A DNA stretch of 64,000 nt from assembly GCA_903860135.1 (NCBI GenBank), contig CAIOPG010000009.1, positions 111,805-175,804 of the forward strand, written 5' to 3'. The notes under the pieces were generated by a model. It was given only the letters and a program-made list of their open reading frames with translations. It ran no database searches and was not told the origin of the DNA. A program made the position numbers and the translations under genes. Within the stretch, counting starts at the first letter, position 1. Each line of letters opens with the position of its first letter. The stretch comes from Candidatus Omnitrophota bacterium. GTDB lineage: Bacteria; Omnitrophota; Gorgyraeia; Zapsychrales; Fredricksoniimonadaceae. This document shows positions 1 through 46,193 of the stretch, one piece after another.

Positions 1-390
1 AACATTTTCAGCCGATGTTAAAATCATCCCGGTATCGAGCAAGTCTGAAACCTGCGCTTCCGGAACATATGTGGATTGTAAATCTGTCGTTAAGGTGTTT
101 GCTTCCTGAATGGCAACGACCGTCACCGGTGTTTCCGCAGGCGTTAAGGGTATAAAGGCAGGGAACAGATCAGAAGCGGATAAAAGAATCCGCGGCTCAA
201 GCGCTTCAAGTTGAAATTTTGACTGTCTTGAATTCACAAGCGGTATCCTGCCAAGATCAGGTGTATAAATTTTTTGATGATAAATTGAATTTACATCCAA
301 AGCCTGTTTACTGTCAACACCAAAATAAAAATTTTTTAAAGCCCTCAGGCAATATCGCCCTGACCGAAAGATAGTCCGTCTTCCAGCCAT
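1..390 (-). CDS. secA: C-terminal continuation of the SecA-family gene in a different frame (helical scaffold domain region); partial, runs off left edge
   Basis: The minus-strand frame opens at ATG 390..388 and has no stop before position 1. Its translation reads MAGRRTIFRSGRYCL...LEALEPRILLSASDL. This aligns with the SecA segment just after the point where the upstream ORF stops: RRAIYSQRNELL ... LRERILAQS. Confidence 0.45.
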   Translation of the reverse strand, partial: MAGRRTIFRSGRYCLRALKNFYFGVDSKQALDVNSIYHQKIYTPDLGRIPLVNSRQSKFQLEALEPRILLSASDLFPAFIPLTPAETPVTVVAIQEANTLTTDLQSTYVPEAQVSDLLDTGMILTSAENV

Positions 391-2333
391 GTGTCGGCCT
401 GCAGGACACTGCGGCGGCGCTGAGAATTACTCCTTAAGGCCGCAGCCTGGGCCCAATGGATCAGCCCTTGTGCAGCCTGATAAGCACCGGGATGCCCCTG
501 TTCCAATGCATAAGCGATTCGCTGGCGGACTGCTTCGGGTAAATATCGGCACAACAACTCATCATCCAGACTGACAAAAGACCGGGCACTGCCCGCATCT
601 CCCTGTCGTGCCGCCCGGCCAAAAAGTTGCCGGTCGATGCGCCGGCTTTCATGGCATTCGGTAGCAATAACATGCAACCCGCCCAAAGCCGCCACACCAT
701 TACCCAACAGAATATCCGTTCCGCGGCCAGCCATATTTGTGGCTACTGTTATCGCACCGTGCTGTCCGGCCTGGGCGACAATAGCCGCTTCTTCCTTATG
801 TTGAACCGCATTCAAAACCCGGTGAGACAAGTTCAACCGATCCAATCTGCGGGACAGGTCTTCACTGATCCGCACACTGCGCGTGCCGATCAGGACCGGC
901 CGTCCGCTGTGGTGAATCCGGGATATCTCTTCTGTAATGGCCTGCCATTTGGCTTCGTGAGTAACGCGTATCTGACGCTTATAAACCTGACGCTGGCAAG
1001 GTTTGTTTTCCAGGATTGGCACCACCGTCAGTCCATAGACCTGCCATAACTCCTGCCGAGCTTCACGCGCCGTACCGGTCATCCCGCACAACCGATGAAA
1101 GAACCGGAAGAATCGCTGAAAACTCAGCCGAGCCAAGGTCTCATTCATAGGCGAAATATCAAGGTTCTCCTTGGCCTCTATCATCTGATGCAATCCGGCC
1201 TGCCAGCTGCGTTGTGCCATCTTGCGGCCGGTGAACTCATCGACGATCACCACCTTGCCCTGATCCAGGACATATTGTTTGTCGCGAATATAGAATTCTC
1301 GTGCGGTCAAAGCCTGTTCCATCAACTCTTCGAGCCGGTGCACCCCCTGGAACATGACCGGAAAGCCTGCTGCTGCCGCCACAAGCCGTTCACGGCCGCG
1401 CCCGGTGATCCTAACCTCGTGATAACGGGTATCCACCTGATAATCAATGAGAGGATCGAATACCCCGGCCAACCTGGCAGCTGCGAAGCAGGCCGCAGTC
1501 AAAAATTGATCATTGCGGGCGCTGGATATGATCAGCGGCGTAACAGCTTCATCGATCAGCACACTATCGGCTTCATCCACAATAGCACTGTGGATCCCCC
1601 GCATCACCAGTTGCTGATCAAAGCGGGCCTGCATGCCCAAATAAGAGCGAATTTGCCGCCGATTATATTTCTGCAAGAGTCCCAAAAAAAGCCGGTCGCG
1701 CAGAAAATCCGCAGCCATTTCCTTTGCCGTCACATAGGTGATATCTTTCAAATAGTTTTCCCGGCGTTCAACGGGACTCATCACCCCGGTTACCGCGCCT
1801 GCGGAAACCCCGCAATAATCATACAAAGGTTTTAGCCAACGGCTATCCCGTTCGGCCAGATAATCATTAACAGTGATGATATGAGCCGGCAGGCCTGTCC
1901 AACCCAGAAGGACCGCATAAAGACCGGCCGTAAGGGTTTTTCCTTCTCCGGTAGCCATCTCAATGATATGGCCTTGGGCCAGGCCAAGGGCGCCGGCCAT
2001 CTGCACCCGATACGGGTCCAGTCCCAGACTGCGGCGAGCCGATTCCCGTACGGCGGCCAATGCCGACAGGATCGACTGTTCATGACCTGTCTTATGCCGC
2101 CGAAAAATGGAACGATATTGCCGTAACGAGGCCTTGAGCTGATCATCAGACATTCGTTCCATGGCCGATCGATACGTTTCGATGGCCATCGCTGATGTGC
2201 GCAATCGGCGGCTGACCAAAGGTGAATTGCGGAATAGCCCGGCGATATGGGCAAAGACCGCATCCGGCCCCGTCGGTAGAGGGCGAGGGCGAACAATAAG
2301 TGTCCGTTGATAGTCGTGACTCAATGTACTCAT
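345..2333 (-). CDS. secA: SecA-family preprotein translocase ATPase (motor domains NBD1/PPXD/NBD2 and start of HSD); reading frame broken near 380, so the gene may be a pseudogene or an assembly error
   Basis: SecA hallmarks are present: MATGEGKTLTA (Walker A), IVDEADSVLIDEAVTPLIIS (DEAD box), GMTGTA, ATNMAGRGTDI and HESRRIDRQLFGRAARQGDAGS. The N-terminus MSTLSHDYQRTL resembles SecA's SRNDRTL. The start at 2333 overlaps the stop of the upstream M50-HlyD gene as TGATG. The ORF track extends the start to 2402. Confidence 0.8.
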   Translation of the reverse strand: MSTLSHDYQRTLIVRPRPLPTGPDAVFAHIAGLFRNSPLVSRRLRTSAMAIETYRSAMERMSDDQLKASLRQYRSIFRRHKTGHEQSILSALAAVRESARRSLGLDPYRVQMAGALGLAQGHIIEMATGEGKTLTAGLYAVLLGWTGLPAHIITVNDYLAERDSRWLKPLYDYCGVSAGAVTGVMSPVERRENYLKDITYVTAKEMAADFLRDRLFLGLLQKYNRRQIRSYLGMQARFDQQLVMRGIHSAIVDEADSVLIDEAVTPLIISSARNDQFLTAACFAAARLAGVFDPLIDYQVDTRYHEVRITGRGRERLVAAAAGFPVMFQGVHRLEELMEQALTAREFYIRDKQYVLDQGKVVIVDEFTGRKMAQRSWQAGLHQMIEAKENLDISPMNETLARLSFQRFFRFFHRLCGMTGTAREARQELWQVYGLTVVPILENKPCQRQVYKRQIRVTHEAKWQAITEEISRIHHSGRPVLIGTRSVRISEDLSRRLDRLNLSHRVLNAVQHKEEAAIVAQAGQHGAITVATNMAGRGTDILLGNGVAALGGLHVIATECHESRRIDRQLFGRAARQGDAGSARSFVSLDDELLCRYLPEAVRQRIAYALEQGHPGAYQAAQGLIHWAQAAALRSNSQRRRSVLQADTWLEDGLSFGQGDIA

Positions 2334-4486
2334 CAGAGATAGTAGCGTTTCTGCAACAACTGTTGAACCCGGCGCCAGCCTTGTTTGAAAAGGGGCTCCC
2401 ATCGCAAATTATACCGGATGACTCCTGAACGGCCGTGCCAGAACACCACTCTTGCAGAATGCTCAAGCCCAACGCGCAACTCATAAAATGGTTCCGCTGA
2501 TTTGCGTCCGCTCTGGTCTTTGACATCCACCGGGATATCACCGCCCCCCATCCAGCCCAGGGCCAACGAAGGCAGTTCAGATTGCTCCATGGGAATCTTG
2601 ACATAACTCCGGCCAGCGATATCGATGTGGGCCTGGCCATGCAAACGCACCGTCGAAGAAAGAATCTCGTTAGCAAAAATACGCGACACATCCTGTTCCG
2701 ATACAACACTACGAAAAACAAAAGACCTCTCGTCAACGAGCTGACCCACGGGAAAGCCGCGCGGCAGCCACATTCCCCGGTAATTGGCCAAGTTGGGTGC
2801 TGACCACTGGGCATCGATCGGCGCCCGTACCAGGCATTCTTTCTGCTGACCCATCAGCTGATCCAGCTGTTCCTGTAAAGCTGCTATCCGCCGCTGGGTT
2901 GGATGAATATCTGCCGTAGTCCGCGCCAAATTTTCATGCAAACGGGCATTCTCCTGCTCAATGGCAGCTTTCACATCCTGAACTTTCCAGTCTAATTCCT
3001 GGTTCTCGATCCGTAAAAGCAATGTCCCTCTCTGGACACGGGAGCCGGACAAAGCCGGGGCCTCATGGATGATACCGGCCACAGGCATGGCAACCATCTG
3101 ATAGCCAGAAGCCTCGAGCACTCCCGTCGTCTTAAACGATGAAGGGAAGGGAATGATCGAACCAAAAAGGATCACGGCGAGGGCACCACCACCACATACG
3201 GCATAAGCCCGGCCTCGGACCTTCATCAGGCGTGGATTAAAGAAAAGATACTGGCTGGTACGGATAAGCGGCAAAATACCCCATGATACAAGCCCTGCGG
3301 CCCCCATCAGCATACCTAATAACAGAAAACGGTCCGATATAAAAAATAGGATGCCGATGGACAAAAAGAACCGGTAAATACCGCTCAGTATCCCATAAAT
3401 CGTCAACCACACGGCTTCTTTCCTTGACGTTACCGGCGGCTGAGCCTCGCGCATACCAAACACATAGCGTTCCAGGAAATAAGTCATTTCCTGCTGCGCC
3501 AACTGCGCCATATTGGCAATATCAAGAAGATCAGAAAGAATATAATAGCCGTCGTAACGCAACAGAGGGTTAATATTGAACAGGACCGTTGAGACCGATG
3601 CCACAAAAATAATATTATAAGCCAGGGAGTGGATCAGTCCCGGTCCGGTGGCCGCCCAGACAAAAACAGCCAGTGCGGCAATAAAAAGTTCCACGATCAT
3701 GCCAGCTGACCCCACCATGACGCGCGCAATTTTACGGCGAAACGCCCAAGCCCCGGACGCATCCACATAGGGCAATGGCGTAAAGATCATGAACATCACG
3801 CCCATAACATGCGTTTCTCCGCCAAAATGCCTGACGGCCATGGCATGCCCGAATTCATGCAAGGTCTTGACCAGCGCGAGTCCCAGATATAAAAGAAGAA
3901 GATTGGATGGCGCTAGAATCCCCTGGCTTTGCGCCTGCAATTCCTGCCAATGATCAACAGCACTTTTTATAGCAAACCCAAGCACCGCCAACCATAAAGC
4001 CGCTCCGAGTTTAGAAAAAATCCAGCAAAAGAACGGATAGACCCGATTCAGCCAGGGTTGAGGATCTAACAACGGGATACGGAAAAACATAATATTCTGC
4101 AGATTGAACCAACGGGTCTTGCGCTGGCGTTGTTGATTCCGTTCAAACAAGCGAAGACTTTCCCACGGCATCCGATACTGTAACAGATTAGCCTGATACA
4201 GCTGAGACAAAAGCTGAACCAGTTCTTCCTGGCCAGGAGCATGGTCCGGATCACGTTCCAGTGCTTGACGCCAAACATCTTCAACCGTATGCAATCCGTT
4301 CAAACGGGATAAAAATTCCCAGGCTTCGGGGCGAATACGAAAAAACGTATTCCCCAGCGGATCTTCGAGCACATACCATTTCTGTCCCTGAAAAAATTGC
4401 CGCCGGATATTCACAGCGGAACGCAAACAGATACGCTGGTCGGCAATACGGTACCAGGATTCATGGAACATTTTACTCTGGGACAT
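2333..4486 (-). CDS. Fusion of an M50 (site-2-protease-like) membrane metalloprotease domain with a C-terminal HlyD-type membrane-fusion (periplasmic adaptor) domain
   Basis: It has HEFGHAMAVRHFGGETH (HExxH zinc motif) inside hydrophobic segments and NPLLRYDGYYILSDLL (the S2P NxxPxxxxDG motif). The C-terminal ~300 aa show HlyD/biotin-lipoyl-like barrel features and a coiled coil (IENQELDWKVQDVKAAIEQENARLHENL). Confidence 0.75.
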   Translation of the reverse strand: MSQSKMFHESWYRIADQRICLRSAVNIRRQFFQGQKWYVLEDPLGNTFFRIRPEAWEFLSRLNGLHTVEDVWRQALERDPDHAPGQEELVQLLSQLYQANLLQYRMPWESLRLFERNQQRQRKTRWFNLQNIMFFRIPLLDPQPWLNRVYPFFCWIFSKLGAALWLAVLGFAIKSAVDHWQELQAQSQGILAPSNLLLLYLGLALVKTLHEFGHAMAVRHFGGETHVMGVMFMIFTPLPYVDASGAWAFRRKIARVMVGSAGMIVELFIAALAVFVWAATGPGLIHSLAYNIIFVASVSTVLFNINPLLRYDGYYILSDLLDIANMAQLAQQEMTYFLERYVFGMREAQPPVTSRKEAVWLTIYGILSGIYRFFLSIGILFFISDRFLLLGMLMGAAGLVSWGILPLIRTSQYLFFNPRLMKVRGRAYAVCGGGALAVILFGSIIPFPSSFKTTGVLEASGYQMVAMPVAGIIHEAPALSGSRVQRGTLLLRIENQELDWKVQDVKAAIEQENARLHENLARTTADIHPTQRRIAALQEQLDQLMGQQKECLVRAPIDAQWSAPNLANYRGMWLPRGFPVGQLVDERSFVFRSVVSEQDVSRIFANEILSSTVRLHGQAHIDIAGRSYVKIPMEQSELPSLALGWMGGGDIPVDVKDQSGRKSAEPFYELRVGLEHSARVVFWHGRSGVIRYNLRWEPLFKQGWRRVQQLLQKRYYL

Positions 4487-4492
4487 AAAGTG

Positions 4493-6355
4493 TCACCACC
4501 AGAACTTAACAAGCAGAAAATCAAGCGTTTTGTGCGTCCACATCCACAGCAAGGTCTTGTACCCGCCCCGGAGTTTACCAACACCCGTCATGCCTGGCCG
4601 CCACCACGACGGAGTTTCAGACAATAATGCCGCGTGGACAACAAAATAATTACCCTTGTCATTGGCTATCGCGACAGGTTCAATGCGTATAACCTTGACC
4701 CGGCGCATATCCTGAGGGCGGCTGGCCAGAATGACTTGTCCGTCAACCGCAAACTTAAGGTGTTGTATCTCCGATTCAGGGACATTCAATTCCACATAGA
4801 TCTTGCCGGACCGCGCAACCCGAAATAAATTTTCTCCCTGACGCACAATCGAACCGATACGTTCCTTGAGGTCCCCCTCAACAATAATGCCGTCAAACGG
4901 AGATTTAATGTCCATCTGTGACAAACGATATTGCACAAGCCCTCGCTTGGCAGTCGTCTGATCCACCATCGCCTGGGCCATGCGCATCGTTGCCAGATCA
5001 TCCTGCGCCCGGACTTTTTCTGTTTCACGTTGATAACGGCTGATCTCCGCCTCGAGCGACGAACTCTCGAGTTGCAATTCATCCTTATCCAACTGCAGGA
5101 GAACCTGACCCGTCACAACGTCATCTCCTGGGCGTACATTCACCGCGGCAATATGCCCGTCGGTCGGAGCCGTCAGGTAAGCCACATTATCGGTGCGCAC
5201 GATCACAGGCGCATGGACCTGATAAGGAAACGGAATAAGTGCCATGAGGATCACCAAACAACCAGCCCCTATCCAGAGATAACGCCAAAACTCTTTTCTG
5301 TTCTCTTGCCACCTGGCCAAAACCGACAAAAAACGGTGCCAAGCTACAAATCCGATCCAGCGGTCATTGTCTTTCAGGTCCGCCATTCGGCGAGAAATCC
5401 CATCACATTCCATATGAATCAACGCCAATTCCTGGGATGTAAAAGCACCGGTGGTGCGTTCTAACACAAAGCCGGCGACGGGAACGTCATTAAGACGTAA
5501 GGGAACTGTACAAAGAAACGGAAGTTTCTGCGATTTCTGGTACGCTTCATGGTCACGAACAATATGCCGGCCACTATTATCATGAGGCATGACAATCTCG
5601 GTATTTTGATCGAGTGCTTCCTCGACAACGGCCTCGAGCATTTTCACCTGATCCATCTTGGCTTCAAAATGATCCCGATGACTGATCGCCTTAAGCCGCA
5701 CATAATGCTTTTCCAGCCAGCCTAGACTGACCTGCTGACATTGATGGCGTCCGGCTATTTCATTGCATACCACCATCGCCGCGGCAAGGAAATGTTTCTC
5801 ATTATTGATCAATGAAGAAAGGTCAAGAATCCCGGCCAGATTTTCTACCTGTCCTTTAGCTTCCTGAAGCAGGCGCACGGTGTTGTAACTGGCAGGCACA
5901 TCCGCCAGCAGCAAGAGTTTTTCAAAACGCTCGGCGTTCGGCCGTGCGGTTCCTGAAGGCAGAATGAACCCCGCATAACATAAATCCTGCGACCGTCCGG
6001 TTAAAATGGGAAGTGCGACCACAAAACGATCGCCACTGATCCAAATGTCAACCACTGCCGTTGTACCAGCTAAAATATCCCGGTGAGAAAGCCACTCCAG
6101 AAAAATCCCGATCAGAAAGTGGGACTTTTTATCTGCGGGTGCTACCGTAATGGCCTGCCATGATTGACCGATGCCAGCATTCTTTACAGCAAGAACCCCG
6201 ACTTCCGCCTGACACTTCTTACAAAGGAAATCCAGATACGCTGGCCAAAATTCAGCCGGAGTCCCAATAAAATTCCGCAAGGCCAGAGCATCCGCCGGAG
6301 CGTTGTTCGGTGCAGGCGGTGGCCCGCTGTTATGGCGCGGTGAGTCCATTGTCAT
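4493..6355 (-). CDS. HlyD-family periplasmic adaptor with a large N-terminal cytoplasmic GAF-like sensor domain
   Basis: About 340 aa of soluble N-terminal domain are followed by a single TM (FWRYLWIGAGCLVILMALIPFPY). A HlyD signature follows: coiled coil plus the biotin-lipoyl hybrid motif (GQVLLQLD ... DIKSPFDGIIVEGDLKERIGSIVRQGENLFRVA). Confidence 0.7.
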   Translation of the reverse strand: MTMDSPRHNSGPPPAPNNAPADALALRNFIGTPAEFWPAYLDFLCKKCQAEVGVLAVKNAGIGQSWQAITVAPADKKSHFLIGIFLEWLSHRDILAGTTAVVDIWISGDRFVVALPILTGRSQDLCYAGFILPSGTARPNAERFEKLLLLADVPASYNTVRLLQEAKGQVENLAGILDLSSLINNEKHFLAAAMVVCNEIAGRHQCQQVSLGWLEKHYVRLKAISHRDHFEAKMDQVKMLEAVVEEALDQNTEIVMPHDNSGRHIVRDHEAYQKSQKLPFLCTVPLRLNDVPVAGFVLERTTGAFTSQELALIHMECDGISRRMADLKDNDRWIGFVAWHRFLSVLARWQENRKEFWRYLWIGAGCLVILMALIPFPYQVHAPVIVRTDNVAYLTAPTDGHIAAVNVRPGDDVVTGQVLLQLDKDELQLESSSLEAEISRYQRETEKVRAQDDLATMRMAQAMVDQTTAKRGLVQYRLSQMDIKSPFDGIIVEGDLKERIGSIVRQGENLFRVARSGKIYVELNVPESEIQHLKFAVDGQVILASRPQDMRRVKVIRIEPVAIANDKGNYFVVHAALLSETPSWWRPGMTGVGKLRGGYKTLLWMWTHKTLDFLLVKFWW

Positions 6356-7220
6356 TTGATAATGTCATGACAGCATTAAGGCCTGGCACAACACCTCCCT
6401 TATCATTATCGAGCAACACCTTGATTTTGCGCAGGCCGCTGGCGGCATCGGCTACAGGGGCAATATACTCTACCACCCCTTCCCGTCGTACCATCTGCTC
6501 CCCATCTCCTATCTTGAGAAAAACCCTGCGCCCGGTTTGTAACTGGCTGGCCAAATTATGATCAACATTCGTCACGAAACGAACCTTGCTAACATCAACC
6601 ACTCGAAAGACAGCTTCCTGCGGTTGGCAGGACTCGCCCGCCTCCAGCTTGAGGTCTACCACAATCCCGTCGAAAGGCGCCTTGATGAACCGCTTGTTAA
6701 GTTCGGCATTGGCCAGTTGGAATTCAAGCTGTTCACGCCGGCGTGTAACTTTCAAGTTGGCCACTTCATACTTGGCCAGGTCATAGTCCAGTTTCTTTTT
6801 GCGCAACTCCTCGGCACTGACGGAATGGGTTTGCTGATAAAGCGCCAGCGTACCTTTAAGGTCGTATAACAACAGCGCCACCTTGCTTAAGGCCGAATCA
6901 AGTTCACTGCTGTTGGTGGCAATAAGTTTACGCCGTTCCACTTCAAGCGTTTCGACTTCTTTTTCCAACTCAACCACCGGATCACCGCTTTTTACACAAT
7001 CACCTTCTTTATGGACAAGGCGAGCCACCTTACCGGCCACTTCAACCCCGATCTTTGCTTGACGGAAAGGCTCAATAATACCAGCACTCGAAAACGCTTC
7101 CGCACACCAGCCTTGACCGGGAGCCACTAGGATCATCGCAAATAATAAAAATATTCCGCCACTCCATGCGCGTATGCCTTGACGAGAAAAATAATTCAAG
7201 AATTTCATTTTAGTCCTCAA
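6330..7220 (-). CDS. HlyD/RND-type membrane fusion protein (periplasmic adaptor subunit)
   Basis: It has an N-terminal signal/anchor and the adaptor motifs GDCVKSGDPVVELEKE and KAPFDGIVVDLKLEAGE. It overlaps both the upstream and downstream genes, consistent with an operon. Confidence 0.8.
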   Translation of the reverse strand: MRTKMKFLNYFSRQGIRAWSGGIFLLFAMILVAPGQGWCAEAFSSAGIIEPFRQAKIGVEVAGKVARLVHKEGDCVKSGDPVVELEKEVETLEVERRKLIATNSSELDSALSKVALLLYDLKGTLALYQQTHSVSAEELRKKKLDYDLAKYEVANLKVTRRREQLEFQLANAELNKRFIKAPFDGIVVDLKLEAGESCQPQEAVFRVVDVSKVRFVTNVDHNLASQLQTGRRVFLKIGDGEQMVRREGVVEYIAPVADAASGLRKIKVLLDNDKGGVVPGLNAVMTLSNDNGLTAP

Positions 7221-8856
7221 GTTTTTCGTAATATTTTGAATACAACTTTGTGTTCTCGCTATAACTTTCCAGATTATTGTCGATCAACAACGAACCGCGC
7301 GTCAGGGCCAATTCCTGCACCATCTGATAATAGCGAACCTGTTGTTCGAGTGTTTTCTTTCGCGTATCCGCGTATTTTTCATTGACTTCATAAACCAAAC
7401 GATTATGACTTAACCCCATCTTCATTTTTCGAATCTCTATGTTCAGTAAAGACTTTTTAATGTCCGACGCGGTCTGATATGCCTTAACCCGCTGATTGAG
7501 TAGTTTTACCCGAGTAACAAGGGTATTGACCACCGCCATTACCGCAAAGCGGGTTTGCTTAAAGGATTCTTCGGATTTCTTACGTTTAATGCGGGCAGAA
7601 TCCAGTTCCCGACGCTCCTTAAACCCCAAAAGAAGAGGCACCTTGACTTCAAACCCGACAGACCAAGCGGGATAATTGTGATCTTGGATCTCATGCCAAG
7701 CTACCGAATTATCACGTCCATAGCCATTGTACCCGTAACGTCCGTTGACGTTGACTTCTGGAAAAGATTGATTGAGATAATAACGGTAGGCCATCTTGTC
7801 GCGCTCCAACTCATGGATCTTGATCATGATATCCGGCTGCCAATTTAATTCGTCTTCTGAAAGGCGCTCCAGATGAACCTTCATTTGCTTGTCGATCCAC
7901 CCACCGGATCGAGACATCCCTTGCACCCTGATCTTATGAACCGAATTATATTCTCGCTTGTATCCCAAGGTGATCTTAAGTTGATTCATAGCCACCAGCT
8001 GATCTTCATAAGCTTCACAGCGTGCGGCCAGCCCTTGCAAGAACTCAGAGCGGATATCCAGCAATTCAGCCTCGGACATCTTGCCCACGTTGTGGCGCAC
8101 CCGGCCGTCATCGAGCAACCATTTTAAAATGTGATACGTATCTGATGCAATACAAAATTTCTGTTGGGCAAAAGCCAGATTCCAGTACGCCGCCTGCACC
8201 TGATAAATACCTGCCATCAGTTTCTGACGGTATTGATGGTACCCGATAACACGATCTTCCAAAGCCAACCGTGTTTTGACCATTGGCGCACCAGACCATG
8301 CCCCTTTCAATAATGGCTGTGATAAATCCGCCCCGGTAAAGGCCTCATATTCACGCCCTGGCCGTGGATTAATATTGCTACGGATAGAATTCAAGGTATA
8401 CGCCAGTTTATATTCAGCGCCGGTAGGTAAAGCCCCCTTCAAACCGGTACTGTATTTGTCGGTCAAATCGTCATAGACCGGAAGGCCGCCCAAAGCAACA
8501 CTTTCTTGAGAGGTGTTCTCCCTTTTCAGGCCTTCTCTATTATAGGAGGCAAATACCTGTGGCTCGAATTCCCCAAGGCTAGCGACAACGGCATTGCGGC
8601 GTATCAACCAATCGTGGTAGGCATCCCTAACCTCAGGGTTGGTCTTGATCGCTTGGGCAACAACATCCATCAATGACAAGTCAGCTACAGGCAACGCTAA
8701 CGCTGTCGTTGTCCGGGTTAACGATAACAATATAAAAAGAATAATCGGGAATAAAGAATGAGGCATAACACGTGCGGTCAAGAAGCAAAGAAACACTTTC
8801 ATCACGTTATTCACCATTAGCAAGAAAGGTATCCATCGTCTCAAAACCAAAGTCAA
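7210..8856 (-). CDS. TolC-like outer membrane efflux protein (outer membrane factor)
   Basis: A signal peptide precedes typical OMF repeats (LSLMDVVAQAIKTNPEVRDAYHDWLIRRN). The 548-aa length is typical, and the gene is the first in a run of adaptor genes. Confidence 0.8.
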   Translation of the reverse strand: MTLVLRRWIPFLLMVNNVMKVFLCFLTARVMPHSLFPIILFILLSLTRTTTALALPVADLSLMDVVAQAIKTNPEVRDAYHDWLIRRNAVVASLGEFEPQVFASYNREGLKRENTSQESVALGGLPVYDDLTDKYSTGLKGALPTGAEYKLAYTLNSIRSNINPRPGREYEAFTGADLSQPLLKGAWSGAPMVKTRLALEDRVIGYHQYRQKLMAGIYQVQAAYWNLAFAQQKFCIASDTYHILKWLLDDGRVRHNVGKMSEAELLDIRSEFLQGLAARCEAYEDQLVAMNQLKITLGYKREYNSVHKIRVQGMSRSGGWIDKQMKVHLERLSEDELNWQPDIMIKIHELERDKMAYRYYLNQSFPEVNVNGRYGYNGYGRDNSVAWHEIQDHNYPAWSVGFEVKVPLLLGFKERRELDSARIKRKKSEESFKQTRFAVMAVVNTLVTRVKLLNQRVKAYQTASDIKKSLLNIEIRKMKMGLSHNRLVYEVNEKYADTRKKTLEQQVRYYQMVQELALTRGSLLIDNNLESYSENTKLYSKYYEKLED

Positions 8857-9181: not shown

Positions 9182-9889
9182 TTACGACAGATTTTCTTCC
9201 TTATGCCCACGCTCCCGCCCTGAATACACCGTCCTCGGTGGGACAATGGTGCCCTTGGGAACGATAACGCCGGGGGCGATGATGGCGTGATCGCCGATCT
9301 CGACGCCGGGCATGATCACGGAGTTTAATCCTACAACGACATGCGCCCCGATCTTGACCTTCTTTAACTTCAGCCCCTTGCGCTCGAACAAATGGCAAAT
9401 GACCGTGGCATTGCCGCCAATGACCGTATTATCGCCGATCTCCAGTAATGAAAGGTCTGCCACATTCTTGGAGTTGATCTGCACATTCAAGCCAAGCTTT
9501 GCCCCCATCATGCGGTAAAAAAGATTCGCAAAGGGCGTCAAGAGCATGAAATCCATGAAGAACGCCTTGACCGCCTGCACGAGCGCGTTCAAGAAGAACC
9601 ACTTGAAAAGTTCGCCGTCCTTAAATCCAAAAGAGCCTTCCTTGAGCCGAAGGCACAGCAATATATTCAACATGCCTACAAAGAACATCAGCGTCAAACC
9701 AAAGAAAAAGAAACCGGCAGCGATTCCAATACCCAGCGCCAACGCGCGGTGAAAGCTTGGCCAATCCGCCGAAACCTGGATCAAATTCAACAACACCGCC
9801 AGCGCCGGTGCCAGCGCCGCCCCGACGACCAAGGCGCCAAGGAAATATAAGAACACCACAATAACGCCCTGCACGATCGCTCGGATCAT
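9182..9889 (-). CDS. Membrane-anchored hexapeptide-repeat (left-handed beta-helix) acyl/acetyltransferase family protein
   Basis: Two to three N-terminal TM helices are followed by hexapeptide repeats (IGDNTVIGGNATV ... IGAHVVVGLNSVIMPGVEIGDHAIIAPGVIV). Confidence 0.65.
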   Translation of the reverse strand: MIRAIVQGVIVVFLYFLGALVVGAALAPALAVLLNLIQVSADWPSFHRALALGIGIAAGFFFFGLTLMFFVGMLNILLCLRLKEGSFGFKDGELFKWFFLNALVQAVKAFFMDFMLLTPFANLFYRMMGAKLGLNVQINSKNVADLSLLEIGDNTVIGGNATVICHLFERKGLKLKKVKIGAHVVVGLNSVIMPGVEIGDHAIIAPGVIVPKGTIVPPRTVYSGRERGHKEENLS

Positions 9890-10004
9890 AAATGATCCCC
9901 CCTATACCAATTGTTTAATATTGCAGAATAACCCCATCCTATCGGCTTTCAGTTTCACTCTCCGTGTCACTTAAATATGACCATTCAAATTGAACAATCA
10001 AAGT

Positions 10005-11195
10005 TCACTTCTTTGAAATGAACTTTGGCATTGCCCGCCGCATAAACTCATCAAAGAGTGGAACTGTGAATGCCACATCACCATATGTTGGACTATAAAT
10101 CATCCCTTTATTGATCAAATTCGCGCGTGTTGGCCCAATGCTGTTTAACTTAACACCTAAGATATCTGCAATATCTCCCGTCCGCTGAACATCCGCGCCT
10201 AAATGAGCCATGGCCCGAAGATATTCTTTTTCTCGTGGAGTAAGCCGATCAAAACGAACACGAAAGAAATTCTCATCCAATCGTTTTATAACGGTTGCTG
10301 TGGCTTTCTGGACATCCAATAAAGAGATCGAGGATTTCTCTGCATAATTCCAAGACTGGTAGCCCCATTCCTGAATAAAATATGGATACCCTTGTGTTAA
10401 CCGAATGATTTCTTTGATGGCATCGCCAGAAAACTTAACGCCGGCACGCACAACCGGATCTTGAAGTGCTTTCGTCGCATCAGAAGATGAGAGCGGCCCT
10501 ATTTCAGGAAATTCAAAAAGCCGTTCGGCATACGATTTAGACTCACCCGCAAGCCTTGTCAATATAGGAAGTCCAGCAGCTAATAAAACCAAAGGCAATT
10601 GCCTCTGTTGCATTTTATGCATCGCCATTATTAAAGCACTTAATTCTTTCTCAGACAGATACTGAATCTCATCAATTAACAACGCCACTGCCGTCCCTCG
10701 ATCCTGGGCGGCTTCAGCCACAGCAATAAATAGATTTGAAAGATCAGCTTCCAGATCGCCACTGTCGGCCGTACCTCGCTCTGGTTCAATATCAAGACCA
10801 AATTCAATGTCCGCAACTTTAACCTTTATGGCACTTATAAAACTTCTAAGCACCCCGAGACCGCGACGAACCTTTGCGCTCGCCCCCTTCTCTCGATCCA
10901 GTTCAAAAAGTAACCGCCGCAAATGAGGTGTCAATAATGCGGCCAAACCTTTATCTTCATGCGCTTCCAGCGTGATCGTATGATAAGCGGAATTTCTTGC
11001 TAATCTCTCGACCTCATTGAGAAGAACTGTTTTTCCCACTCCCCTCAATCCAACAAAAAGCAAACTCTTCTCGGAACGGCGTTGACGCACTCGCCCTAAA
11101 AGAACTTTAGATTTCTCGATTATTTGATCGCGACCAACTAATTCAGGAGGTGGTGAACCAGCTCCTGGTGAAAATGGATTTGCAATATGATCCAT
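10005..11195 (-). CDS. AAA-type ATP-binding protein (archaeal-ATPase/ORC-Cdc6-like family) with a C-terminal winged-helix-like region
   Basis: It has a Walker A motif (GLRGVGKT) and Walker B motif (LLIDEIQYL), and the N-terminal motif NPFSPGAGSPPPELVGRD. The preferred start is the ATG at 11195, which has a GGAGGA Shine-Dalgarno; the ORF track uses a TTG at 11207. Confidence 0.7.
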   Translation of the reverse strand: MDHIANPFSPGAGSPPPELVGRDQIIEKSKVLLGRVRQRRSEKSLLFVGLRGVGKTVLLNEVERLARNSAYHTITLEAHEDKGLAALLTPHLRRLLFELDREKGASAKVRRGLGVLRSFISAIKVKVADIEFGLDIEPERGTADSGDLEADLSNLFIAVAEAAQDRGTAVALLIDEIQYLSEKELSALIMAMHKMQQRQLPLVLLAAGLPILTRLAGESKSYAERLFEFPEIGPLSSSDATKALQDPVVRAGVKFSGDAIKEIIRLTQGYPYFIQEWGYQSWNYAEKSSISLLDVQKATATVIKRLDENFFRVRFDRLTPREKEYLRAMAHLGADVQRTGDIADILGVKLNSIGPTRANLINKGMIYSPTYGDVAFTVPLFDEFMRRAMPKFISKK

Positions 11196-11273
11196 ACAAT
11201 CCTCCAAATGTTATAGCAAGTTATACATAGTTATAGCATAATTATCGTATAACTACAAATAACTTAGTATAAC
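11196..11273. promoter_or_regulatory. Operator-like imperfect palindrome: three GTTATA half-sites followed by three TATAAC/ATAACT half-sites
   Basis: The sequence is GTTATAGCAAGTTATACATAGTTATAGCATAATTATCGTATAACTACAAATAACTTAGTATAACT. It lies directly upstream of the ATPase gene. Confidence 0.4.
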
Positions 11274-13538
11274 TCAAATATCACGACAAGCCCGCTGATC
11301 CTGATTACCAACCTTATCTATCCCAAAGCGCGTATACACATACGAAACCCCCAGGAACAATACACCGAGCACGATCAGGGTGATAATCTTGAAAATGATA
11401 TCCAGCCCTGACAATTCGATCAGCACCACGCGTCCCAGCGTCAGTGCCAACAATAGCATGCCGCCCATCCGTTCGGTCTTGTTGCCGGTAAAGAAACCCG
11501 CAAGGATGACAACAACACTGGCAACCCCAAGGCCCAGCGATATCAACGACGGGGCAACATACTGGTGCACGGCAATAACAAGAACAATAAGTCCAGCGAA
11601 GAACGCTACTTCAGCTTCCTTCTCAAGAAAGGGAACGCTTGTTGGCCGAGTGGTGATCCTTTTGATCAAATAATAAAAAACAAATAGCGCTGCAACATCA
11701 CAACTCACAATGAACCAACCCAGGAACATATTGTACGGGGCAATATGATCAAACAGCAACACAACCGCCCCGAGTGCCATAGCCAGCCAGGCATAAGCCC
11801 TGAATCGCCTTAGATCAAGGACAAAACTTAATACCAATAGCACCAAGCCCGCGACAGATAAAGCAAATGCCACCCATGGCTCACGCACGAACGTACTCAC
11901 CCATAAGGTCGCATACATCACAGCCGCCAATGAAAAAAGCTGATCGAACAGATGATCAACCCCATCAGGCGTTGCCGCTTGCTTCATGCGCTGCAGCCAG
12001 TAGAAACATACCCCGGCAGAAACCGCCGCCAGAAAATAAATGCATCCATACCAGCTCCACACGATCCCCAGGAAATGAATATACGACGGGTACTCCAACC
12101 CGAGCAACACTATCTTTAAAGCTGTGCCGACCGCCAGGGCATACGCCAGATAACGGTATACCCGCTCCTTGCCATACACCCCGACGAACAATAAGAACGG
12201 GATCTCGATCAACCATAACGTCAAGGCCGTGGTCGGCAAAAATTTTATCGCAATGGCCAATGTCATGGCACTCACAGCGGCCACAATATCGCTGATAAAC
12301 ATTTTCTCCTGTTTTTGTTGCTTCATCCACAAGGCCAACAACCAATAGACCAATCCAGTACCAAGAAAGAATACAAACATCTGATCATGGAACAGATGGA
12401 TTAGTCTATAGGAAAGAAGGCTGTATAGGACAATATTCCTCAAATTCGTAGCCGCGACAACACGCTCTTTCACGGGATCAGTGCTCACTTTTATCAGATG
12501 AACGCCGGCAAGAAAGACAGCCCCATATGCCGTCAGGAATGTAAGGTTCAATAAATTTTGTTCGTGCGATGAAAAAAGCTGAGGCGTTACCCACATGCCA
12601 TGGATGCCATAGGTCACGATGACCCCCAAGGCAAGGATGTTGACCCACTGAAACTTATAAACCATGAACAATATGATAGCCGCCAGCAACAATAAACTGA
12701 CAAGCGTAAACGGTGTGACACTGCCGACAGTCAACGTCAAATACGCCACACCAACAACAACCGCCATCATTGACTCTGATCTATAACGTACGCCATGAAC
12801 CATCATGCCCGCGACAACCACGGCCAGCAGGAACGAATTTATCCCCTCACTGGCCAATATCCTTGATGCTTCAAAATGATGCATCGCGTAGGTCGTAAAA
12901 TATATGATCGCCCAGGCACCGCCCAAAAGAACCCGTCCATACGCCATGAACTTCTCCTTAGATTCCAGCCGGAGTCCGACGAAGAATAGGGCAACCCCGA
13001 CCAGATACCCGAAAGCAACCCGCACGAATGGCCCAAAATATTGGAACGAATAACTGATCAGAAACGCCACGCCCAGCGCCAGGATCGCGATCCCGATCTT
13101 GTTCAACCAGTTGCGCCCGAAATCCAGTTCCATATCAGCGGGCCTGACAGGATTTTCATCGGCAACGGCAATCTCTTCAGGCAAGCTCTCCTTAACACTA
13201 ACAACATCATTGCGGGCATCAAATGCCTGAATGGCCGTGCCTCCTTCCGCAAGTTTGCCCATCAACATTTCCAGATTCTTCGCCCTTGCCTCGAGCGCGC
13301 CCAATGATCGTTGCAATTCCCCCAGCTGACGTCGGGCATCGTGAAGATCATGGGCTCCCGGCACTGCAACATCCAACGGATCTTTCTTTGATGGAAGCAC
13401 GAGCGCTATAAGCACAGCCAACGGACCTGTAAAAACCGCCAAGGCAAAGAATAGCCAAGCCCCAAGTTTCTTCTGATCGGCAAGGTACAGCGTGGCGATA
13501 ATGGATATACACCAAATCGATGTAAAGAAGCTATGCAT
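11274..13538 (-). CDS. Large polytopic membrane protein with an N-terminal coiled coil (DUF2339-like)
   Basis: At 754 aa it has 20 or more hydrophobic segments and an N-terminal coiled coil (RRQLGELQRSLGALEARAKNLEMLMGKL). Confidence 0.55.
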   Translation of the reverse strand: MHSFFTSIWCISIIATLYLADQKKLGAWLFFALAVFTGPLAVLIALVLPSKKDPLDVAVPGAHDLHDARRQLGELQRSLGALEARAKNLEMLMGKLAEGGTAIQAFDARNDVVSVKESLPEEIAVADENPVRPADMELDFGRNWLNKIGIAILALGVAFLISYSFQYFGPFVRVAFGYLVGVALFFVGLRLESKEKFMAYGRVLLGGAWAIIYFTTYAMHHFEASRILASEGINSFLLAVVVAGMMVHGVRYRSESMMAVVVGVAYLTLTVGSVTPFTLVSLLLLAAIILFMVYKFQWVNILALGVIVTYGIHGMWVTPQLFSSHEQNLLNLTFLTAYGAVFLAGVHLIKVSTDPVKERVVAATNLRNIVLYSLLSYRLIHLFHDQMFVFFLGTGLVYWLLALWMKQQKQEKMFISDIVAAVSAMTLAIAIKFLPTTALTLWLIEIPFLLFVGVYGKERVYRYLAYALAVGTALKIVLLGLEYPSYIHFLGIVWSWYGCIYFLAAVSAGVCFYWLQRMKQAATPDGVDHLFDQLFSLAAVMYATLWVSTFVREPWVAFALSVAGLVLLVLSFVLDLRRFRAYAWLAMALGAVVLLFDHIAPYNMFLGWFIVSCDVAALFVFYYLIKRITTRPTSVPFLEKEAEVAFFAGLIVLVIAVHQYVAPSLISLGLGVASVVVILAGFFTGNKTERMGGMLLLALTLGRVVLIELSGLDIIFKIITLIVLGVLFLGVSYVYTRFGIDKVGNQDQRACRDI

Positions 13539-13552
13539 AAAAACACCTTTCG

Positions 13553-14284
13553 TTATAAGGTTTCTTTAAACCACGCCCAACACACCCCCATAAACTTCTC
13601 CGGTGCCTGGTCGAACATCGTCTCGGCATGACCCAATTTCTCGAGGATCACGAGCTTCTTGGGCTCCCTGGCCTGTGCAAATAATTTCCGGCTGTGCGCG
13701 GCGTTGATAAGCCAGTCATCGGCCCCATGCACAAACAAAACTGGCCGGGGAGCAATGCGCGCAACAACGTCGATGGGGGCTGTCTTGGGTTCCCATGGAT
13801 GCCCCGGACGAACCCCTTTGCCCCGTGCTTTATGTCCCATATTCAACTTTAAATCATCAAGCATTCCAGGTTTCCAGAACTGATAATCAATCTTCCAGAA
13901 ATCATACGGAGCGCTCACCGCGATCAGGGTTTTGATGTCAGGATTTTGTGCCGTTTCCAGCAGACTGATCGCGGCTCCCAACGAAAACCCCATCAAGCCG
14001 ATCGCCTCATACCCGCAGGTTTTCACATGATCGATCACGGCTTTTAAATCCGCGCATTCCCGGGATGTCCATGTGAAAAGCCCCGAACTTTTTCCATGCC
14101 CGCGGAAATCAAAAGCCACGACATCGTAATGAACAGCCAGGGCGTTAGCCATCGCACGAAAAAGATAGGCGTCTTTGGTATTGAAGAACCCATGTGCCAG
14201 GATAACCACCTTGTGGAACCCCTGCGCATGATGCACGGCTTCAATGCGATGTCCATCCTGGGTTTTTAACGTCACCTCACGCAT
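13553..14284 (-). CDS. Alpha/beta-hydrolase fold esterase/lipase (GxSxG)
   Basis: It has a GFSLGA nucleophile elbow and an HGFF oxyanion region. It overlaps the upstream aas-like gene by 8 nt. Confidence 0.75.
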   Translation of the reverse strand: MREVTLKTQDGHRIEAVHHAQGFHKVVILAHGFFNTKDAYLFRAMANALAVHYDVVAFDFRGHGKSSGLFTWTSRECADLKAVIDHVKTCGYEAIGLMGFSLGAAISLLETAQNPDIKTLIAVSAPYDFWKIDYQFWKPGMLDDLKLNMGHKARGKGVRPGHPWEPKTAPIDVVARIAPRPVLFVHGADDWLINAAHSRKLFAQAREPKKLVILEKLGHAETMFDQAPEKFMGVCWAWFKETL

Positions 14285-17200
14285 CAGTCTTACCTTTACT
14301 GGCTGCGGTCAATTCCTGGGCCAAAGCCTTGATGCGCTTTAAATCCGTCTTGCCCGTCCCCAAAACAGGGATCGCCTCAATGCGGTAAAAGTTATCTTTC
14401 TTGGGTATCCATAAATTGGGGATCCCTTTGCTGACCAGCGACGCGCATACTGCCTCAACATCCATATCAACCGTATGCACCACGACCAGCTTCTCGCCTT
14501 TCTTCTCATCGGCCACAGCGGTGACGGCCACCACCGGATCCGTCGCCCCGATCGCTTCCATGATATTTTCTTCAACCTTAATATGCGGCACCATCTCACC
14601 GCCGATCTTGCTGAAACGGCTCAGGCGGTCGGTGATCTTGATAAACCCGTCTGCGTCGATCGTGGCAATATCGCCGGTGATATACCAGCCATCCTTGAGG
14701 ACCTCAGCTGTTTTCCCGGGATTATTCAAATATCCCTTCATCACATTAGCGCCTTTAACCAAAAGCAACCCATCCTGATCCGGCCCCTTGAGTTCAAAGG
14801 TATCCGGGTCGACCACCTTGGCCGCTACTCCTGGGATAGGATGCCCTACTTTGCCGAACTTGTGGCCGGTCTGTGTGGCGTCAGCTCCTCCCTTATAATG
14901 CGGAAACCCGACGGTCACAATCGGCGACAGTTCGGTTGCGCCATAGCCTTCGAACGGAACAAACCCAAACTTTTCCTGAAAAGCCTGCGCCAATGGCTCT
15001 TTCAGTTTCTCGGCGCCGACAACGGCCATGCGCACGGTAGCAAACTGTTCTTTTGTGCATTTCTTGACATACGCTGACAAGAAGGTCGGCGTTCCCATCA
15101 GGATCGTCCCTTTGTATTTTAAGGCCAGTTTGCCGATGGTACCGGCATCGAGCGGATTGGTGTGGTAAACAACACCGACAGCCGTGCCGACGGGGAAACA
15201 CAGGGTCGCGGTGAATCCAAAAGAATGGAAAAATGGCAATGCCGCCACCACCACATCGTTCTTCTGTATATTAAAAACCTGATACAACCCTTCGATATTG
15301 GAAAAAACATTAGCGTGCGTCAATTGAACCCCCTTGGGTTCGCCTGTCGAACCGCTTGAGAATATCACGGTCGCCGTCTCATCCACGTTGAGCTTGTCAC
15401 CGCGCACAAACAGGGCACTCAAGGCCCGGGCAGGCAAGATAAACGCCGCCAAGAAATACAGCCCCGCCGCCATAGGATGGATCCGGACCTTGATATCCTC
15501 CAGAAAGACCATCTCCGGCTTAACGGCAATCCCGGCTTTCTCCACGAAGGCCCGTGACGTGATGATCATCCGCATGGCGCACTGCCTGACACAGGAATCA
15601 AATGCTTCCGCCGAAAGCGTAAAGTTCAGATTAACGGGAATCTTGCCCGCGAATGCCACTGCCAGATTACACATAGCCGCCATGCATGATGACGGTAATA
15701 ATATTCCTACCATATCCGGAGAATCTTTTAACTGACGCACGGGATGAAACAATACCCTCGCCATGGCAACTACCCCGGCAAAAACCTGGGGATATGTCAG
15801 GTGTGTGCCCATCGAGTCTGCCATACAGGATTTGAACGGATGGCGTTTCACTTCGTCGACAAACGCCAGATGCAGTTTCTTGCGCCATGCCCCGCGTAAA
15901 ATGTTTGCCTCCGCTCCGAGCTCCTGCACGGTCAGTCGAACCTCATGCACCTTTGCCGTAGCAGGCATCGCTTTCCCGAAAACAATAGATACCGGATAAA
16001 GTGTAAAACGCGGGATCTTCCAGAAATAACGGCCATGGGCAAACGTATAAATACTACCCCAGATATTATCGAGATACAGCGGGATGATCGGTGCCGTGAG
16101 CCCTTTCATGATGTGTTCAAAACCTTTATTAAACGGCAGCATATTCCCTGTCCGCGTTAAATGCCCTTCAGGGAAAATACATACCAGCTCACCGCTTTCG
16201 ATCGCTTGCCTCGCGGTTAAAAGGGCGGTCATGATGGCTTTGGGACCTTCAGAACTATCGATCGGGATCACCTTAAGGATACGGCAAAAAAGATTGATCA
16301 CCGGAAGTGCATACATCTTGCGATACATGATAAAGCGTACCGGGCGTTTGAGGGCCGCGAGGATCAGGATCGCATCAACATAGGAAATGTGATTGGCAAT
16401 GAGCAGCGCCCCGCCTTCTTCCGGCACATGCGCACTGTTGACCACGCGCAATTTATAGATCGAATGCGCCAACAGCCAATTCACCAGACGCACCAGCGCG
16501 ATGGGTAAGGTCACGACGATATAGATCGTGGCCAAGAGCGCCATCCCCGCGATGATCCAGAAGATCTTGTCCGGACCGATCGCCAGCTGTCCTCCAAAAT
16601 ACCAAAGGAATGCCCCGGCCACCAATGACCCGCACGCTGAAACCATATTAAGCACAGACAGATACTGCCCGCGCTCTGCCGTCGGGCTCCAGCGCTGGAA
16701 GAACGCATTGAGCGGCACGGTATAAAACCCGGCGCAAACGCCGAGGATAAACAACAGGATCATGGCCATATTAAAATGACCGCCCCATCCCAGCAAGAAC
16801 GACATCAGTGTCATCCCTAGGGCACCCAGCGGCACGAGGCCGAGCTCGACTTTCTTTTCCGACGCCGCTCCCGCCCAGACACTCCCGGCGGCAATGCCCA
16901 GGGAAACGGCAACAAGAAGGATGCTGATATGCACCTGGTCAACTGCCAGCACATGCGCCCCGTAAACAAGGATGTTCATCTGAAATACAGCCCCCAGAAA
17001 ACTAAAGAAAGCCAGGGCGATCATCGTCAGGAAAAGCCCCTTGTCTTTGAGTATCCCTGAAAACGCATTGCCCGCACCGGAAAAAAATCCCTGTGGCAAT
17101 GTGTTGATCGGCTGTTCTGCGCGGATCAAGAAACTAACACCAAACCCTACCAAAGCCAGAGCCGCCATCACAAACCCGACACTAAACAAATGCCCTGAAA

Positions 17201-20085: not shown

Positions 20086-20091
20086 AAGACT

Positions 20092-23081: not shown

Positions 23082-23115
23082 AAATATTCTTTCCTTACAT
23101 AATAGAAAAATTTAT

Positions 23116-24222: not shown

Positions 24223-24229
24223 AAAAAGA

Positions 24230-25924: not shown

Positions 25925-25943
25925 ACGATCAACTCAAAAAATG

Positions 25944-29391: not shown

Positions 29392-29437
29392 ATTGACTCC
29401 CTGTCAATTTGTAAAATACGGCATTTAAGTATGAAAT

Positions 29438-46178: not shown

Positions 46179-46193
46179 TTGAAACATAAATAA

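Follow-up and report, generated by a model that had tools for sequence, protein, structure and literature searches.

A tandem-GAF HlyD-type adaptor in a pump-less SecA-like/M50-like/TolC operon beside a giant LEPR-XLL gene of an Omnitrophota bacterium

Introduction

Why would a periplasmic adaptor, usually a passive-looking connector with a tiny cytoplasmic tail, carry some 350 residues of folded protein ahead of its single transmembrane (TM) helix? The question is raised by a gene, here termed GAF-HlyD, in a 64,000-nucleotide stretch of DNA from a Candidatus Omnitrophota bacterium (NCBI GenBank assembly GCA_903860135.1, contig CAIOPG010000009.1, positions 111,805 to 175,804 of the forward strand; hereafter the window, to which all coordinates refer). 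A sequence-only reading of the gene had taken its product for an HlyD adaptor with a 340-residue cytoplasmic GAF-like domain and had suggested that a small molecule or cyclic nucleotide controls the export complex. What that reading missed is the context that gives the fusion its meaning, namely a pump-less operon for a SecA-like ATPase, an M50-like protein, adaptors and a TolC-like protein, together with a giant gene of the LEPR-XLL type. With moderate confidence, we propose that GAF-HlyD is the cytoplasm-reaching adaptor subunit of a five-protein, envelope-spanning exporter, and that its tandem GAF couples or gates.

The novelty of the fusion itself is modest because the family was described in 2015 by Kamneva, Poudel & Ward (PLoS One; PMC4452313) as part of a conserved secondary SecA_DEAD module that contains a truncated SecA_DEAD protein, a Peptidase_M50-like/HlyD protein, a GAF-HlyD/biotin_lipoyl protein, an HlyD protein and sometimes OEP/TolC. 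These authors suggested that the GAF part has a function in regulation and sensing, and proposed a SecA-powered system resembling the type I secretion system (T1SS), in which the SecA-like protein substitutes for the ATP-binding cassette (ABC) ATPase and the M50-like protein is the membrane part, while calling the biological role of the module completely unknown (PMC4452313). Their table includes Ruegeria pomeroyi, Magnetococcus marinus, Methylobacterium extorquens, Nitrosospira, Bordetella avium, Achromobacter, Nitrospira defluvii, planctomycetes and verrucomicrobia, and Chlorobi are among the phyla to which they ascribe the module (PMC4452313). The literature that we searched holds no functional follow-up to this description, nor any report of a linkage to LEPR-XLL proteins, of a PqqD-like domain or of an invariant protease site in the M50-like protein; GAF also goes unmentioned in the accessible portion of a Chem Rev review on tripartite systems.

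Layout of the GAF-HlyD protein

The gene and the parts of its product are as follows:

4493..6355, minus strand: GAF-GAF-TM-HlyD adaptor gene, an ATG-to-stop open reading frame (ORF) of 620 residues
5906..6301, minus strand: GAF-A-like domain, residues ~19-150 (model secondary structure, Foldseek over the whole region)
5801..5899, minus strand: long inter-domain helix, residues ~153-185 (AlphaFold helix 141/153-185, as in phosphodiesterase (PDE) and CyaB2 tandem GAFs)
5363..5800, minus strand: GAF-B domain, residues ~186-331 (sub-threshold Pfam GAF match, Pfam matches of homologues, conservation)
5225..5356, minus strand: juxtamembrane helix with DRWxGxR motif and single TM helix, residues ~334-377 (model helices, hydropathy)
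4553..5224, minus strand: periplasmic adaptor with lipoyl/barrel-sandwich domain, short alpha-hairpin and beta-barrel (Pfam, Foldseek, secondary structure)
4496..4552, minus strand: Trp-rich C-terminal helix, residues 602-620 (model helix 602-619, conservation)

On the parent contig, the gene caller places an alternative start at 6349, two codons later, which yields a protein of 618 residues. A database search returned 194 homologues with E-values down to 1e-151, and the 120 that are listed are 34-44% identical (best ~42-44%) and nearly all full length (~600-630 residues). Given these homologues and the relatives found in at least 556 species-level genomes (see below), the protein is far beyond chance. 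The AlphaFold model of the full-length protein (predicted local distance difference test, pLDDT, of 88.8 from a 56-sequence alignment) orders its parts as GAF-A, long helix, GAF-B, helix 334-350, TM helix 353-373, lipoyl domain, hairpin, beta-barrel and C-terminal helix. Hydropathy analysis detects one hydrophobic segment only, at residues 359-377, close to the modelled helix at 353-373. Because the protein has no N-terminal signal peptide, because basic residues lie N-terminal of the TM helix and because contact with TolC requires the adaptor domains to be in the periplasm, the N-terminal ~350 residues are predicted to be cytoplasmic.

The C-terminal half is a genuine HlyD-type periplasmic adaptor. 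Residues ~384-600 match HlyD_3 (4.4e-17), HlyD_D23 (3e-16) and Biotin_lipoyl_2 of Pfam, and Foldseek aligns this half with EmrA, MacA, MexA, ZneB and AcrA (E from 6e-15 to 1e-12), EmrA, MacA and MexA being closest. The model secondary structure contains a hairpin at 425-479 and a barrel at 509-601, such that membrane anchor, lipoyl domain, hairpin and barrel are all present. No named adaptor subfamily of NCBIfam was reached, the best being RND_mfp (82.9 bits versus a cutoff of 94.9), with type_I_hlyD far lower (42.9 versus 208.65). The last element of the protein, after the beta-barrel, is a Trp-rich amphipathic helix (consensus ...LTHRTVDFLRLxLWW); it is highly conserved and may fold back onto the inner membrane or touch another subunit.

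A tandem GAF fold

Modelled separately, residues 1-350 (pLDDT 86 and predicted template-modelling score, pTM, 0.70, from a 21-sequence alignment) form two alpha/beta domains (~19-150 and 186-331) linked by a long helix. The best PDB matches of this model are tandem GAFs, including PDE2A (3ibj, 1.1e-9; also 1mc0), PDE5A, PDE6C and CyaB2 (1ykd), along with phytochrome GAF-PHY modules, and the Foldseek alignments to tandem GAFs span 350-390 columns at a probability of 1.00 and E-values from 1e-9 to 5e-7. The single-GAF structure 3p01 is also matched, with a TM-score of 0.66-0.69. In the AlphaFold model and by Foldseek, the arrangement of elements is that of a GAF fold, that is an antiparallel sheet, one face of which is flanked by the N- and C-terminal helices and the other by short helices and loops.

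The sequence signal is fainter. No Pfam match covers the first ~350 residues at default thresholds, and the GAF model gives E=0.026 when residues 1-355 are searched and E=0.0064 (17.5 bits) with residues 175-335, such that the scores of 15.5-17.5 bits, confined to the second domain, stay below the gathering score of 22.4 bits; residues 24-170 (GAF-A) searched alone have no Pfam GAF match. Precomputed matches to PF01590, PF13185 or PF13492 (GAF, GAF_2, GAF_3) are recorded in most of the 120 listed full-length homologues. A profile built from the N-terminal alignment found nothing at E<=1 among all PDB sequences, and the kinship with GAF domains is therefore visible at the level of the fold only, with the assignment resting on the fold and on the Pfam matches of the homologues.

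Thus, the large soluble GAF-type module that the sequence-only reading placed in the cytoplasm is borne out by models, Foldseek and homologues, with the amendment that it comprises two GAF-like domains, and so is its claim that a single TM helix and a true HlyD/membrane fusion protein (MFP) adaptor follow this module. The region is not of low complexity and folds confidently. The search with GAF hidden Markov models gave a divided answer: the protein's own sequence stays sub-threshold in Pfam, and the GAF fold is recovered through the model and through the Pfam matches of homologues.

A five-gene operon without a transporter

GAF-HlyD is the third of five genes that lie contiguously, head to tail, on the minus strand (window 345..8856), the other four and their salient parts being:

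7210..8802, minus strand: TolC-like outer-membrane factor, 530 residues by gene call (Pfam OEP, 7.4e-30; the longest ORF reaches 8856)
6330..7208, minus strand: short HlyD/MFP adaptor, 292-296 residues, with an N-terminal signal or anchor (HlyD_3, 4.1e-17; hydrophobic segment 15-40)
2333..4486, minus strand: PqqD-like/M50-like (HExxH)/HlyD-like protein, 717 residues, ~7 TM helices (daptide_HExxH, motifs, TM scan), hereafter M50-HlyD
4181..4372, minus strand: PqqD-like domain, resembling a recognition element of ribosomally synthesised and post-translationally modified peptides (RiPPs), residues 39-102 of the M50-like protein (Pfam PqqD)
3845..3859, minus strand: HEFGH zinc-binding motif of the M50-like protein (from the translation)
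345..2333, minus strand: SecA-like ATPase, 662 residues, with nucleotide-binding domain 1 (NBD1), preprotein cross-linking domain and NBD2 (Pfam)

Pfam and NCBIfam searches detected no transporter of the ABC, resistance-nodulation-division (RND) or major facilitator superfamily (MFS) type in the operon, and none occurs among the conserved neighbours in 80 loci (see below). Three of the operon's proteins carry HlyD-type domains by Pfam: GAF-HlyD, the short adaptor, which exceeds the RND_mfp cutoff of NCBIfam (105.5 versus 94.9 bits), and the 717-residue protein, with a weak HlyD_3 match in its C-terminal periplasmic part.

The 717-residue protein is closest to the daptide intramembrane metalloprotease (daptide_HExxH, 1e-48, 166.4 bits, under the cutoff of 300); it has no Pfam Peptidase_M50 match at E<=0.01, and no named NCBIfam model scores above its cutoff. 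In proteases of the site-2 protease (S2P) type, a TM helix bears an HExxH motif, and the third zinc ligand comes from an NxxPxxxxDG motif further downstream. Both are present here, as HEFGH at residues 210-214 and NPLLRYDG at 306-313, and H210, E211, H214, N304, P307, D312 and G313 are invariant in 28 M50-like homologues. The PqqD match (E=0.023) covers profile positions 3-67 of 67, and the domain is detected in 23 of the 28 homologues, with a best E of 1.4e-4.

The SecA-like protein matches SecA_DEAD (2.4e-89), SecA_PP_bind (1.7e-21) and P-loop_SecA (1.2e-55) of Pfam and retains a Walker A (GEGKT) and a DEAD-type motif. Its alignment with B. subtilis SecA (E 2e-123, ~600 residues) covers residues 18-603 of 841 only, from which we conclude that wing domain, two-helix finger and C-terminal domain are all missing; a Pfam SecA_SW match is absent. 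In SecA itself, the helical scaffold, the wing domain and the two-helix finger engage SecY. It falls under every SecA and SecA2 cutoff of NCBIfam (equivalog 570.7 bits versus 814).

Distribution of the module

To place the operon among other genomes, we used two surveys: a scan of one genome per species for relatives of GAF-HlyD, from which 80 loci were fetched, and an independent metagenome scan anchored on M50-HlyD, which supplied another 80. Relatives of GAF-HlyD occur in at least 556 species-level genomes from Spirochaetota, Verrucomicrobiota, Desulfobacterota, Fibrobacterota, Lentisphaerota, Nitrospirota, Acidobacteriota, Gemmatimonadota, Pseudomonadota and others; the fusion thus recurs in hundreds of genomes. 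The order TolC, HlyD, GAF-HlyD, M50-HlyD, SecA-like recurs in most of the 160 loci and in many phyla. Among the 80 genome loci, 75 contain M50-HlyD, 67 the short HlyD adaptor, 63 the SecA-like gene and 61 TolC, the absences falling mostly at contig ends. In the metagenome set, GAF-HlyD (with its GAF region aligned) lies directly upstream of M50-HlyD in 57 of the 59 loci with enough upstream sequence, indicating that it is a core subunit and not an optional regulator, and the SecA-like gene lies downstream of M50-HlyD in 49 of 50 testable loci.

No further neighbour is conserved, as no cluster of flanking ORFs is present in more than 9 of the 80 loci, and for this reason a conserved cyclase, regulator or small precursor peptide that might explain the GAF domains was rejected. 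Four loci considered as informative variants were likewise discarded. Loci L042 and L051, candidates for lacking M50 or SecA-like, both look fragmented. At L126 and L128 (metagenome Ga0272440), a homologue of M50-HlyD stands without GAF-HlyD or SecA-like nearby, with nothing obvious replacing them; at L128 it is followed by a 272-residue protein without Pfam match and then by unrelated metabolic genes.

Conservation of the GAF domains and its bearing on their role

Conservation is distributed unevenly along the protein. Positions conserved in at least 90% of sequences number 31 of 146 in GAF-B, 6 of 24 in the juxtamembrane segment (DRWxGxR), 16 of 37 in the C-terminal tail (584-620) and 4 of 132 in GAF-A, such that the first three are far more conserved than GAF-A. 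The conserved positions of GAF-B include the MEEALDQ helix, R267, H269, S283, P285, R287, E299, R300 and F305, and in the juxtamembrane segment W333 and G335 are invariant while R332 and R337 are conserved at 90% or more.

This pattern bears on the proposal, contained in the sequence-only reading, that the GAFs are small-molecule sensors whose ligand, a cyclic nucleotide or another metabolite, switches the export complex allosterically. The fold matches the tandem GAFs of PDE2/5/6 and CyaB2, which are regulated by cyclic nucleotides; helix 235-250, helix 267-276, S283/P285/R287 on one strand face and E299/R300 are polar or charged, as a pocket would be, and these most conserved elements of GAF-B lie, by standard GAF topology, on the ligand-binding side of the sheet; and in the model continuous helices join GAF-B to the TM helix. 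In tandem GAFs of the PDE2/5/6 and CyaB1/2 type, cyclic-nucleotide binding is tied to the NKFDE signature motif. By sequence and alignment this signature is absent from GAF-B and is replaced at the equivalent position by the invariant E299-R300...F305...E309 (VLERTTGAFTSQEL). Moreover, no GAF of solved structure was recovered at the sequence level by the profile search of the PDB, the flanking ORFs clustered over the 80 loci yielded neither a cyclase nor a phosphodiesterase as conserved neighbour, and GAF-HlyD behaves as an obligate subunit. We therefore regard sensing of a small molecule as rather unlikely.

Less probable still, in our view, is that the GAFs are a ligand-free scaffold for oligomerisation or docking, for example a cytoplasmic ring beneath the adaptor oligomer, that takes no part in signalling. 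Dimerisation is a classic function of tandem GAFs, the conservation of GAF-A is poor and its hidden Markov model signal absent, and GAF-HlyD is found in essentially every module, as a structural part would be. Yet GAF-B is as conserved as the adaptor and has many invariant charged residues, beyond the usual needs of scaffolding, and the linker from GAF-B to the TM helix is conserved too.

Candidate cargo

The gene next to the operon points to what the module may handle:

1..300 (L081 16050-21857), minus strand: first part of a gene for a 10,223-residue candidate cargo, which continues beyond the window start (called on the parent contig)
178..210, minus strand: LEPR-XLL leader motif LEALEPRILLS in the giant protein (NCBIfam NF012209)

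The giant gene begins at window position 300, 45 nucleotides past the SecA-like stop, and the N-terminus of its product contains ...SRQSKFQLEALEPRILLSASD... and scores 22.1 bits against NF012209 ('LEPR-XLL domain'; cutoff 17). Five of five giant ORFs that lie downstream of SecA-like genes pass this model, the four others, from unrelated loci, at 19.5-31.2 bits. Pfam domains are absent from the first 1,936 of the 10,223 residues. A strict LEPR-XLL regular expression matched at 16 of the 80 genome loci and 18 of the 80 metagenome loci, and at none in reversed-sequence controls; each match lies 10-72 residues from the start of an open frame, mostly no more than a few hundred nucleotides after the SecA-like gene and in frames that leave the locus after ~1,800-1,950 residues. 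LEALEPRILLS is the sole match within the 64-kb window. Where at least 2 kb of sequence follow the SecA-like gene (46 loci), a frame of at least 800 residues lies just downstream in 12. Overall, a giant gene with an N-terminal LEPR-XLL leader comes after the SecA-like gene in roughly a quarter to a third of the testable loci.

The leader has the consensus basic..F.LE.LEPR.LLSAD.L.G and, as it contains no hydrophobic core of the Sec type, it is not a Sec-type signal. Some loci encode small LEPR-XLL proteins (~220-420 residues) or two LEPR-XLL genes in a row (L060 16748 and 17671, L063 18893, L116 1650, L043 9400), showing that the leader is not limited to giant proteins. LEPRxLL N-termini are also reported for two giant proteins of Chlorobium chlorochromatii, Cag_663 and Cag_665, which share a co-expression cluster with the horizontally acquired secA Cag_1676, possibly the SecA-like gene of such a module, and for which another export route (SapC/TolC/HlyD) was proposed (bioRxiv 10.64898/2026.03.19.712371).

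That the module instead serves regulated intramembrane proteolysis or RiPP-like peptide maturation, with adaptors that regulate the M50-like protease or export a small peptide, we consider very unlikely: the M50-like protein is indeed nearest to the daptide metalloprotease (1e-48) and the YydH/LiaK RiPP proteases and does have a PqqD-like leader-recognition domain, but small precursor ORFs and RiPP-modifying enzymes are not conserved near the module in the 80 loci, giant LEPR-XLL genes are linked in cis, and a SecA-like motor with cross-linking domain, three adaptors and TolC point to polypeptide translocation across both membranes.

Surrounding genes

Upstream of TolC (9182-17735, minus strand), the window encodes a hexapeptide acetyltransferase, an AAA_16 STAND-like ATPase, a DUF2339 membrane protein, an alpha/beta hydrolase and a 1,152-residue MFS/acyltransferase/AMP-binding fusion (Aas-like). 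None of these genes is conserved beside the module at other loci, and the acetyltransferase, the AAA_16 ATPase and the DUF2339 protein, considered as module members, were rejected on that ground. Further along (18196-35893, minus strand), radical SAM enzymes abound in a long cluster of genes on the same strand, which resembles one for biosynthesis or glycan modification. It encodes four B12-binding radical SAM proteins (one with a SPASM domain) and one further radical SAM protein of the SPASM type, and in addition a carbamoyltransferase, an asparagine synthase, a class-V aminotransferase fusion, a GT2 glycosyltransferase and a PMT_2-like protein. Rfam matched nothing in the window except three tRNA genes (46096-46266 and 62841-62915, minus strand).

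Discussion

How could these parts work together? Architecture, folds, conservation and gene linkage are results of the analysis, whereas the roles as motor, channel, protease, cargo and gate are inferences from them. The SecA-like protein, in which both nucleotide-binding domains are retained along with the preprotein cross-linking domain, would be the motor and the multi-TM M50-like protein the inner-membrane component, with the PqqD-like domain recognising the leader and the M50-like protease removing it. Three adaptor-type periplasmic domains would provide the link to TolC, and proteins with an N-terminal LEPR-XLL leader, often giant, are the likely cargo. In GAF-HlyD, GAF-B is predicted to connect with the TM helix by way of its C-terminal helix and the conserved DRWxGxR hinge, and binding of a partner at GAF-B (the engaged cargo or its leader, the SecA-like motor, or a metabolite are candidates) could be relayed across the membrane to the periplasmic adaptor, promoting assembly or opening of the TolC duct. 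Because conserved helices wire GAF-B to the TM helix, occupancy of GAF-B could control the periplasmic duct. Coupling to a partner or to cargo seems to us somewhat more likely than a freely diffusing small-molecule signal, and the two are not mutually exclusive.

Three points weigh against this proposal. An LEPR-XLL gene is found in cis in only ~20-35% of loci. PqqD scores below its Pfam gathering threshold in every sequence tested. Finally, in M. extorquens AM1 the GAF gene is expressed and the rest of the operon is not (PMC4452313), which could point to an independent regulatory role of this gene.

A further-reaching version of the exporter proposal, which we put forward tentatively, is that the module represents a distinct double-membrane pathway dedicated to LEPR-XLL proteins, in which the leader would be recognised by the PqqD-like domain and cut by the protease, a wing-less SecA-like motor would act independently of SecYEG, the protein would be exported from N- to C-terminus through the adaptor/TolC duct, and the tandem-GAF gate would couple occupancy by cargo or ligand to opening of the duct. 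If this is true, the pathway would have many clients among the largest bacterial proteins known.

An adaptor with such a 350-residue tandem GAF, kept across many phyla, would constitute a built-in transmembrane switch for a secretion duct. The module, with a truncated SecA and an intramembrane protease and no ABC, RND or MFS pump, has been without known cargo since its description in 2015, and the LEPR-XLL linkage provides a concrete and testable candidate for the exported protein of this orphan. It also bears on the exit route of giant proteins without Sec, Tat or T1SS signals, such as the 10,223-residue protein encoded here and possibly the 36,806-residue protein of C. chlorochromatii. Tests are feasible because the module occurs in the tractable Ruegeria pomeroyi, Methylobacterium extorquens and Bordetella avium.

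Comparison with known systems

Compared to the module of 2015, the same five components are found here, all of them contiguous, while the 2015 paper names neither a cargo nor a PqqD-like domain nor a tandem-GAF structure. Canonical SecA and SecA2 share NBD1, the cross-linking domain for preproteins and NBD2 with the SecA-like protein, but the gene of the latter is linked to adaptors and TolC and not to SecY; similar wing-less SecA domains have been reported embedded in giant Omnitrophota proteins (bioRxiv 10.1101/2023.11.21.568195).

The tandem GAFs of PDE2/5/6 and CyaB1/CyaB2 share with GAF-HlyD two GAF folds, a long helix and an output that leaves through a C-terminal helix. Identity is only ~9-13%, there is no match at the sequence level and NKFDE is missing here, and the output is a TM helix with a periplasmic adaptor in GAF-HlyD, whereas it is an enzyme in the others. 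Peptidase-containing ABC transporters (PCATs) and RiPP leader peptidases follow the same logic as the module, in that a leader-recognition domain and a protease are joined to an export apparatus. In PCATs the protease is a C39 cysteine protease, whereas here we find an M50/S2P-like intramembrane metalloprotease and a SecA-like motor, and the substrates of PCATs and RiPP peptidases are small peptides, in contrast to the giant candidate substrates here.

The closest counterpart for the adaptor itself is the T1SS (HlyB-HlyD-TolC), which likewise combines an inner-membrane adaptor that has an N-terminal cytoplasmic part with a TolC-family channel. The module has no ABC transporter of the HlyB type, which in the T1SS is energiser and inner-membrane channel; its ATPase is SecA-like, it has three adaptor-type proteins, and the signal of the candidate cargo is N-terminal (LEPR-XLL), whereas that of the T1SS is C-terminal and of the RTX type. 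Very large proteins are exported by the T1SS; the giant protein encoded here is a candidate cargo only. The cytoplasmic tail of HlyD measures ~60 residues, compared to the 350-residue tandem GAF. In E. coli this tail binds substrate and triggers the recruitment of TolC, both activities reportedly going back to work by Thanabalu in 1998 and Balakrishnan in 2001. By analogy, the tandem GAF gate may be an enlarged version of the substrate-sensing tail of HlyD.

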